Shown one piece after another: positions 34,249-35,154 of a stretch of 35,154 nucleotides of DNA. Both the position numbers and the translations under genes were made by a program. The DNA lies in the IMG/VR virus record IMGVR_UViG_2913152634_000005. One strand, 5' to 3'. The DNA comes from a virus (taxonomy: Duplodnaviria > Heunggongvirae > Uroviricota > Caudoviricetes). Within the stretch, counting starts at the first letter, position 1, and the number at the start of each line of letters is the position of its first letter. The notes under the pieces are model-generated. The model made no database searches. It saw only the letters and a list, made by a program, of their open reading frames with translations, and had not been told where the DNA came from.

Positions 34249-34539
34249 TCATCTTTTAACTCCATATACCGCCAATACCCGTTTCATCGCGGCACTCTGG
34301 CGACACTCCTTAAAAATTAGGTTCGTGCTCATCTTTCCTTCCCGTTCTTCCTTGGTAGCAAACCGGTAATACACCGTTCGCCAGACCTTACCTTCGATAA
34401 CCAGAAGACCTGCCCGTGCCATTTTAGCCGCGGCCTGATTTATGCTGGTTACTGTTGCGCCTGTTAGCGCGGCAACGTCCGGCGCACAGAAGCTATTATG
34501 CGTCCCCAGGTAATGAATAATTGCCTCTTTGCCCGTCAT
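34249..34539 (-). CDS. ren: Ren exclusion protein
   Basis: 96 aa near-identical to lambda Ren. Confidence 0.88.
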   Translation of the reverse strand: MTGKEAIIHYLGTHNSFCAPDVAALTGATVTSINQAAAKMARAGLLVIEGKVWRTVYYRFATKEEREGKMSTNLIFKECRQSAAMKRVLAVYGVKR

Positions 34540-34779
34540 ACACTTGCTCCTTTCAGTCCGAACTTAGCTTTGAGTTCTGCGATCTTCGCCAGAGCCTGTG
34601 CACGATTTAGAGGTCTACCGCCCATGACAGGAAGTTGTTTTACTGGTTCAGGGATCGCCTCACCACGGTTAATTCTCGCAGTCATATGGACAAGCTCATC
34701 TGCGGCCTTACGGCGTAATTCCGCATCAGTAAGCGCATTGGCCCGCATGTTCTGATACAGGTTGGTAACCAGCCAGTAG
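34536..34779 (-). pseudogene. P: replication protein P, 3' fragment truncated by IS911
   Basis: Translation ends ...NRAQALAKIAELKAKFGLKGASV as in lambda P; the reading frame runs into the IS911 terminal repeat at 34780. Confidence 0.8.
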
Positions 34780-35154
34780 TGTAGTGGCACACTGAATTTG
34801 GCCACCTGAACAGAGGTGATATGCTCACCTCAGAACAACACAGGTGCTCCAATGAAAAAAAGAAATTTCAGCGCAGAGTTTAAACGCGAATCCGCTCAAC
34901 TGGTTGTTGACCAGAACTACACGGTGGCAGATGCCGCCAAAGCTATGGATATCGGCCTTTCCACAATGACAAGATGGGTCAAACAACTGCGTGATGAGCG
35001 TCAGGGCAAAACACCAAAAGCCTCTCCGATAACACCAGAACAAATCGAAATACGTGAGCTGAGGAAAAAGCTACAACGCATTGAAATGGAGAATGAAATA
35101 TTAAAAAAGGCTACCGCGCTCTTGATGTCAGACTCCCTGAACAGTTCTCGATAA
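34780..35154. mobile_element. IS911 (IS3 family), left end, continues beyond the window
   Basis: Terminal repeat TGTAGTGGCACACTGAATTTGGCC at 34780, followed by IS911 orfA. Confidence 0.85.
34852..35154 (+). CDS. insN: IS911 transposase OrfA
   Basis: [53 protein letters not shown]... recognised as IS911 OrfA; ends at the window edge with the A AAA AAG slippery site. Confidence 0.88.

Follow-up and report, generated by a model that had tools for sequence, protein, structure and literature searches.

The window, that is, the whole stretch of 35,154 nucleotides analysed here (virus record IMGVR_UViG_2913152634_000005), holds a lambda-like prophage lying between ibs and mdtA. Between positions 33800 and 35154, the minus strand reads ninB, a small ORF, ren (34249-34539) and an ORF ending at 34536. 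The ren gene (34249..34539, minus strand, 96 aa) is intact according to the ORF list and to RefSeq ('protein ren', WP_000145926.1), and it overlaps the stop codon of its neighbor. The latter is the 3′ remnant of a lambda-type replication gene P (34536..34779, minus strand), consisting of codons 154-233 and the stop codon. In detail, its translation (YWLVTNLYQ...KGASV*; from 34778 downwards, YWLVTNLYQNMRANALTDAELRRK...FGLKGASV) is identical to residues 154-233 of the 233-aa P of the SLK172 prophage, and matches Pfam Phage_lambda_P (PF06992) with E=6.7e-10 and 39.4 bits (cut-off 26) over profile positions 118-162 of 162. The DNA of P′-ren is 99.5% identical to P/ren of phage H-19B and 99.0-99.3% identical to that of lambda-type phages. 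In the two complete Escherichia coli genomes which share this locus (see below), the remnant is labelled by RefSeq as 'replication protein P, incomplete, missing N-terminus'. With 80-81 of the 233 codons left and the 5′ part missing from the locus, P is not a full-length functional gene; the statement of an earlier note on this DNA, that only the last ~80 codons of P are left, is in agreement with this. Neither a promoter nor a Shine-Dalgarno sequence was found upstream of the P remnant.

At position 34780 the sequence changes from P to an insertion sequence (TGTAGTGGCACACTGAATTTGGCCACC), which continues to the end of the window (TGTAGTGGCACACTGAATTTGGCC). The stretch 34780..35154 (plus strand) represents the left 375 bp of a 1,249-bp IS3-family, IS911-like element with the terminus TGTAGTGG..., and the other 874 bp are beyond the window. 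The earlier note had located an IS911 terminal repeat at 34780, and a complete left end of such an element is indeed found there. The orfA of the IS (34852..35154, plus strand) encodes a helix-turn-helix protein of 100 aa (Pfam HTH_Tnp_1, E=6.2e-14) and carries the A6G motif of a programmed -1 frameshift at 35103-35109 (AAAAAAG); the RefSeq comment on the transposase is likewise 'programmed frameshift'. The window ends at the stop codon of orfA, which is a mere window boundary with no biological meaning.

In both complete genomes the full IS has 1,249 bp, with termini TGTAGTGG.../...CCACTACA, and contains orfA and an orfB with an rve domain. This architecture, with an HTH_Tnp_1 orfA and an rve/rve_3 orfB in 0/-1 frames and the A6G motif, is that of the IS911 group of the IS3 family, as are the imperfect terminal inverted repeats TGTAGTGGCA.../...GACCACTACA with 5′-TG...CA-3′ ends. 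The termini were read directly; a repeat finder with a 9-nt seed missed them, the exact match being 8 nt. The part within the window is 100% identical to the full copies in two loci (L002 and L003) and shows 97.6% identity over its first 335 bp to the curated 5′ fragment of IS911B from K-12. The rest of the IS (transposase part) is 87-89% identical to the decayed IS911 relics of K-12, and the element is 88% identical to the annotated ISEc52. The names of the OrfA protein cluster include 'InsN for IS911A' and 'IS3/IS911 family', and public plasmid and genome records name the element merely 'IS3 family transposase'. On these features the element is assigned to the IS3 family as IS911-like. It is widespread: 697 plasmid records contain it at an identity of 99% or more. 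The two genomes bearing the junction contain about 5-7 copies each, which is an indication that the IS is active in this lineage.

The left joint is ambiguous by 2 nt, since the tg at 34780-81 also fits P, and codon 153 is possibly retained. The P sequence beside the joint is GTAGTG and resembles the IS tip TGTAGTGG. Microhomology-mediated joining between this hexamer and the IS end was considered and rejected. Both copies are kept and the terminus of the IS is complete, and for this reason the joint is placed at the IS tip and not inside the shared hexamer. The joint also creates an ORF of 89 codons (34536-34805, minus strand), with a GTG start inside the IS terminus, which runs into the C-terminus of P. 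No Shine-Dalgarno sequence or promoter is evident for this chimeric ORF, and an exact-sequence look-up of its 89-aa product in public gene calls returned no record. The 70-aa form with an internal start was found solely in other P contexts or at contig edges, and never at the IS junction.

In the search for the far side of the IS, the region 34200-35154 was compared with 5,426 complete E. coli genomes. The P′-IS junction is present in two of them, that is, 2015C-4136CT1 (USA) and Z1323HEC0355 (South Korea); all other matches end at query position 582, corresponding to window position 34781. In an ungapped comparison over 12,955 bp, the two genomes show 99.92% and 99.95% identity to the window. 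As 6-10 SNPs separate the window from both genomes, it represents a third, very close relative. One candidate for a further genome with the junction, ECOD1, was rejected, as its prophage is of the DLP12 type and unrelated, P is intact in it, and the element downstream of ren is ISEc52.

In both genomes the right end of the IS adjoins a lambda-type int gene at its nucleotide 96, with the first 95 nt absent, followed by attL and mdtA. The sequence directly 3′ of the IS right end is taaagagttcggattaggc..., and the int protein reads from K33 (KEFGLGRDRR...). Only positions 38-73 of Arm-DNA-bind_1 are retained in this truncated Int, the first half of the arm-binding domain being gone. The int-side junction is restricted to the same two of the 5,426 complete genomes. 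The 5′ part of P, O, cII, cro and cI are absent beyond the IS in both, and there is no second copy of P. The extension past 35154 proposed in the earlier note has thus produced the other end of the IS and not the 5′ part of P, and an intact second P, which that note had named as the finding that would speak against it, was looked for in both complete genomes without success. Since the window ends 375 bp into the IS, the far junction was read in these two near-identical genomes and is inferred for the source genome, which probably continues in the same way.

The triplets flanking the P/int copy of the IS are tag and taa, without a target-site duplication. Each of them matches its own parental gene: the left flank reads ...ccagccagtag as in P, and the right flank taaagagttc... 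as in the int gene of relatives whose int is 100% identical. As both flanks are parental sequence, a duplication that later decayed is improbable. With P at the left flank, int at the right flank and unequal triplets, the arrangement is not that of a simple insertion. The unequal flanks and the int gene on the far side indicate that the IS marks a deletion joint.

A further copy of the element, located in yegL (locus L003, 2383-3631, outside the window), lies ~3.4 kb beyond the left end of the window in the same sequence and orientation, and the P/int and yegL copies bracket the whole prophage. The yegL copy, 38 kb away in the same genome, shows 0 mismatches in 1,249 bp, splits a single gene and is flanked by a perfect ggt/ggt duplication. 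It thus constitutes a positive control that this element makes 3-bp target-site duplications. The P/int copies of 2015C-4136CT1 and Z1323HEC0355 differ at two IS positions (751 and 976). The transposase of the former is a RefSeq pseudogene with an internal stop, and this copy may already be inactive.

The SLK172 prophage, located at the same mdtA site, has the normal lambda order and is 98.6% identical in int and 99.7% in P-ren. Between these genes SLK172 contains xis, ea genes, exo, bet, gam, kil, cIII, an immunity region with a LexA-family repressor, cro, cII and O. The interval which is missing in comparison to it (6569-20000 of SLK172) amounts to 13.4 kb, of which 2 kb are an IS100 that is specific to SLK172. 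This puts the loss at about 11-13 kb, a size that refers to a related, non-identical prophage, as lambdoid early regions are mosaic and the ancestral content may differ. Two relatives at the ibs-mdtA site, Z1323HEC0423 and Z1323HEC0067 (L004 and L005), are 100% identical in int/attL and 99.6% in the Q-S region, with int and xis intact. Their late genes have been lost by a different deletion, in which a holin fragment is fused to a fragment of J, and their early region is scrambled. Within this one prophage lineage, decay has taken independent routes.

Based on the above, the IS is best explained, with a probability of about 0.85, as the scar of an IS-associated deletion in the lambda-like prophage between ibs and mdtA, and not as a simple insertion into P. 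The latter had been the claim of the earlier note, in which IS911 truncates P by inserting into it, and it does not hold, because the far end of the IS adjoins int nucleotide 96 without a duplication. It is true that the homology to P reaches up to a complete IS terminus, which is the one-sided appearance of a plain insertion, and one would then expect the missing 5′ two thirds of P, with the rest of the early region, just past the window; the continuation into int and mdtA in both genomes, the lack of any 5′ part of P and the triplets tag and taa without duplication make this hardly credible. Alternatively, a deletion independent of the IS may have come first, the IS having entered the int′-′P joint later with a 3-bp duplication that was then changed by a point mutation. 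In favor of this explanation, the two triplets differ at one position only. Each of them is, however, parental for its own side, so the mutation would have had to restore the parental base by coincidence, an improbable event where the DNA and its relatives agree at 99.9-100%, and an int′-′P joint without the IS occurs in 0 of the 5,426 complete genomes; this order of events is very improbable. The least probable explanation is a chimeric P′-′int join made in assembly. The IS is multicopy and repeats are a classic source of misassembly, but two closed genomes that are independent of each other, having come from separate laboratories in the USA and in South Korea, agree in this arrangement, the window adds a third sequence, 6-10 SNPs apart, with the same left junction, and the int-attL-mdtA context is the expected end of a prophage.

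In the deletion proposed here, the left inverted repeat would have been joined precisely to P at codon 153/154, and the right one, outside the window, precisely to int nucleotide 96. The event would have removed the 5′ end of int, xis, exo/bet/gam/kil/cIII, N and the immunity region (cI and cro), cII, O with ori, and the first two thirds of P. Since both IS termini are complete and the flanks uninterrupted, both joints seem to have been made by transposase chemistry. Two routes may be envisaged. In the one, two copies in direct orientation, placed in int and in P, would have recombined homologously with the loss of the interval and of one copy. In the second, a single insertion would have come first, and the transposase would then have produced an adjacent deletion by the attack of an IS end on a nearby site of the same molecule. 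The two routes fit the data equally well. Both have been described: for IS150 of the IS3 family in the long-term evolution experiment, 14 of 14 associated deletions lacked duplications and arose in two steps, an insertion and then an adjacent deletion; where duplications are absent, the other common cause is recombination between copies of the IS (PMC11708052). Deletion models for copy-out-paste-in IS elements and the IEE protein have been reviewed (10.1101/2023.06.07.543989). The intermediates of the first route would be recognized by GACCACTACA+TAGTGCGCG (IS in P, with a target duplication) and GGGTAA+TGTAGTGGCAC (IS in int, with a target duplication). Among the 5,426 complete genomes, none was found to have this IS in just one of the two genes (P or int), nor did exact-pattern scans of metagenome contigs and GTDB genomes reveal one, the observed junction itself being absent from the GTDB representatives as well. 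For the source genome, the deletion predicts a right joint in which the IS (1,249 bp) ends as ...CCACTACA|taaagagttcgg (int nucleotide 96), followed by attL and mdtA.

A second and different IS3-family element of 1,258 bp is located at 5397..6654 (minus strand), recognized by its inverted repeat arms with the termini TGTAGTGGTC.../...GCCACTACA. It is 65% identical to the IS911-like element, and its termini are also TGTAGTGG. Its flanks are gtt and atc, without duplication. On one side lies the N-terminal part of V (6655-6944) and on the other lom (4737-5336); RefSeq reports there a 'phage tail tube protein, missing C-terminus' beside an IS3 transposase and Lom. This arrangement identifies the second element as the mark of a deletion from the 3′ part of V through J. 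The disruption of E and V noted earlier is real, with E split into 20858-21103 and 8664-9449 and V truncated to 6655-6944. The three lesions differ in kind: V and P end at IS3-family deletion joints without duplications, and E is interrupted by a site-specific satellite, the last being in principle reversible.

The packaging and head module (21159..27236, minus strand) is retained, as recognized by the exact lambda cos 12-mer, full-length ORFs and RefSeq. It comprises cos (27225-27236), Nu1 (26502-27047), A (24602-26527), W (intact, full-length ORF within 21159..27236), the portal gene B (22801-24402), the protease/scaffold gene C (21501-22820) and D (21159-21497), all on the minus strand; the retention of cos, terminase, portal and scaffold genes had been correctly described before. 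The antiterminator gene Q (31311..31934, minus strand, 207 aa; RefSeq 'antitermination protein') is an intact ORF as well, with pR and N upstream of it lost. This Q allele is found in 1,228 of the 5,426 genomes, and one of the two junction genomes has a second copy. At the tail-fibre end (window 1-2974), genes of effectors are located, namely nleC (1-1020), nleB2 (1054-2034) and an NleG-like/DUF1076 gene (2396-2974); nleD and a fragment of nleH lie just outside the window. The cargo of type III secretion system (T3SS) effectors is thus kept while the functions of the phage decay.

The functions lost are SOS sensing (cI), excision (xis gone and int truncated), replication (O/ori and P), N, and pR/pL. 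Judged by its gene content, the prophage cannot sense SOS, excise or replicate; the view that it is defective in replication stands, O with ori and most of P being deleted. A terminator scan of L002 (hit at 12001-12024; window positions are these plus 22199) located a tR2-like intrinsic terminator downstream of ren (34200..34223, minus strand), with the stem AGGCCTGC...GCAGGCCT followed by a T-run. With N deleted, this terminator between ren and Q would block read-through towards Q. No consensus site for an outward promoter from the IS towards ren/Q was found on either strand between the IS and ren. Based on the loss of pR and N, the lack of a consensus promoter and the terminator after ren, the intact Q is without evident expression in cis.

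The satellite in E is a helper-embedded PICI of 11.4 kb (9450..20858, minus strand) at the site E:Phage_cap_E:80, with the core AAGCA duplicated at 9445-9449 and 20859-20863. It splits E between codons 82 and 83 into an N-part (20858-21103, minus strand; Phage_cap_E profile positions 1-78) and a C-part (8664-9449, minus strand; positions 94-328). Its genes are a tyrosine int (Arm-DNA-bind_3 and Phage_integrase domains), AlpA, an Icd-like gene, a D5_N/DUF5906 primase, SSB and homologues of E and D of its own. It also carries an Abi_C gene (9804-10565) and a lambda I-like gene (11558-12166) that has been captured. The int, alpA and primase genes are on the strand of E, that is, in the orientation of the late operon, as at HE-PICI sites. 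A cos-like copy of the cos region of the helper (11322-11471) is 87% identical to it. There are exactly two occurrences of the doubled motif TGTATTGC (9532-9551 and 20711-20730), and the minus strand carries both. Measured from the AAGCA core, these occurrences, as doubled tgTGTATTGCantgTGTATTGCa, are at ~82-85 bp and 131-134 bp, the exact figure varying with the centre chosen. In published HE-PICIs the doubled tgTGTATTGCantgTGTATTGCa is co-oriented, ~81 bp upstream and ~132 bp downstream of the attP centre (PMC10111431). The int|E junction recurs at many chromosomal positions, in 171 of the 5,426 complete E. coli genomes. On this gene content and site, the satellite is assigned to the HE-PICI class of Tommasini, Mageeney and Williams 2023 (PMC10111431), and is thus of an already known type.

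Compared with both complete genomes, the window has lost one nucleotide in two homopolymers of the satellite, with G4 instead of G5 at 16335 (primase) and C4 instead of C5 at 20576 (int). Both losses cause frameshifts, which could be real decay or sequencing error. Just downstream of the primase, 9-bp tandem repeats are located at 14998-15019 (ACCTTGTCT x2.4) and 15124-15141 (GGTAGATAA x2), which are candidate iterons of a replication origin. The repeat at 14998-15019 has one copy more in the window than in Z1323HEC0355.

According to the HE-PICI model, the helper supplies SOS sensing, the composite's excision and replication, late transcription, and virion parts (PMC10111431). Of these duties, the IS-linked deletion took the first three, and the deletion from V to J took the tails. 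Many helpers look truncated, leaving 'potentially abandoned HE-PICIs' (PMC10111431), and the window is one such case with its lesions mapped. The earlier note had suggested that a satellite could exploit the retained genes. A satellite does exist, being the HE-PICI in E, but the suggestion that it could use the retained cos and head genes is weakened by the loss of pR, N and cI, by the tR2-like terminator that separates ren from Q, and by the deletion of the tail genes G-J. Activation of the remnant in trans by the Q of an incoming phage is conceivable as a candidate. A rescue of the satellite would need an incoming helper, which would itself bring the same genes.

Why the deletion persists, as distinct from how it arose, is addressed by a further explanation, compatible with the IS-associated deletion, in which the remnant was domesticated under selection. 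The deletion would have been favored by removing lethal induction while keeping the effectors, the HE-PICI with its Abi gene and the packaging genes, which could be switched on in trans by a Q-matched incoming phage. The effector genes and the HE-PICI are in fact retained, the relatives at the mdtA site have decayed by other deletions and likewise kept their effectors, the Q allele is common with a second copy in one of the two genomes, and Tommasini et al. suggest that, given a new helper, abandoned HE-PICIs may become active again (PMC10111431). On the other hand, the junction occurs in just two of the 5,426 genomes, the tail genes G-J are deleted, and the int and primase of the satellite in the window each carry a 1-nt homopolymer frameshift. 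Recent deletions, in line with the identity of the IS copies, account for the retained head genes just as well, and such selection is rather unlikely. A stronger form, in which the grounded helper and the HE-PICI are kept as a working unit and the IS-linked deletion has made a launch pad and defence locus for the satellite, is somewhat less likely still. In that form, a Q-matched lambdoid phage, incoming or co-resident, would activate the remnant pR′ in trans, transcription would pass through cos-Nu1-A-B-C-D into the satellite, and the satellite would excise and use the terminase, portal and scaffold of the remnant together with the tails of the invader, which would be hampered. A formerly lethal prophage would then serve the satellite permanently as its launch pad and as a defence locus. 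The remnant is a product of ordinary prophage decay, in which the embedded satellite has been stranded as well.

Decay of prophages linked to IS elements is textbook knowledge, P and int are already incomplete in RefSeq, and satellites in gene E were described in 2023. The present analysis corrects the picture of the locus, in which the whole early region is deleted and not just P broken, with the consequence that neither induction, excision and replication nor expression of Q in cis is expected. It also provides a mapped example of the abandonment of an HE-PICI via two IS3-family deletion joints in its helper, and the locus could serve as a natural test case for the revival of a satellite by a new helper.

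The cryptic lambdoid prophages of E. coli K-12 (DLP12, Rac and Qin) are similarly grounded, having lost immunity, replication or structural modules, often adjacent to IS elements, while keeping scattered working genes. In comparison to these, the remnant described here is located at ibs-mdtA and carries T3SS effectors, an embedded satellite and a complete head module from cos to D. Its IS resembles IS911, the copy-out-paste-in element of Shigella and E. coli, in its 1,249 bp, the TG...CA ends, the HTH of orfA, the DDE/rve domain of orfB, the A6G motif and the 3-bp duplication at the control copy. Unlike the K-12 copies, which read TGAAGTGG, both termini here read TGTAGTGG. The deletion joint is similar to the IS3-family deletions without target-site duplications known for IS150 in the E. 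coli long-term evolution experiment and for IS629/IEE in O157, with a complete-ended IS at the joint, no duplication and several active copies; a difference is that the history of the present joint cannot be followed in time and that no intermediate was found. The composite of satellite and helper corresponds to 11capE/50icd (PMC10111431), with 11.4 kb inserted in E at position ~80 of Phage_cap_E, co-oriented with it, and with int, AlpA, primase, a capsid homologue of its own, a cos-like copy and the doubled TGTATTGC, whose spacing is about as published. In contrast to 11capE/50icd, the helper here is dead, with cI, xis, O/ori and the 5′ part of P deleted, int truncated, and the 3′ part of V through J deleted.
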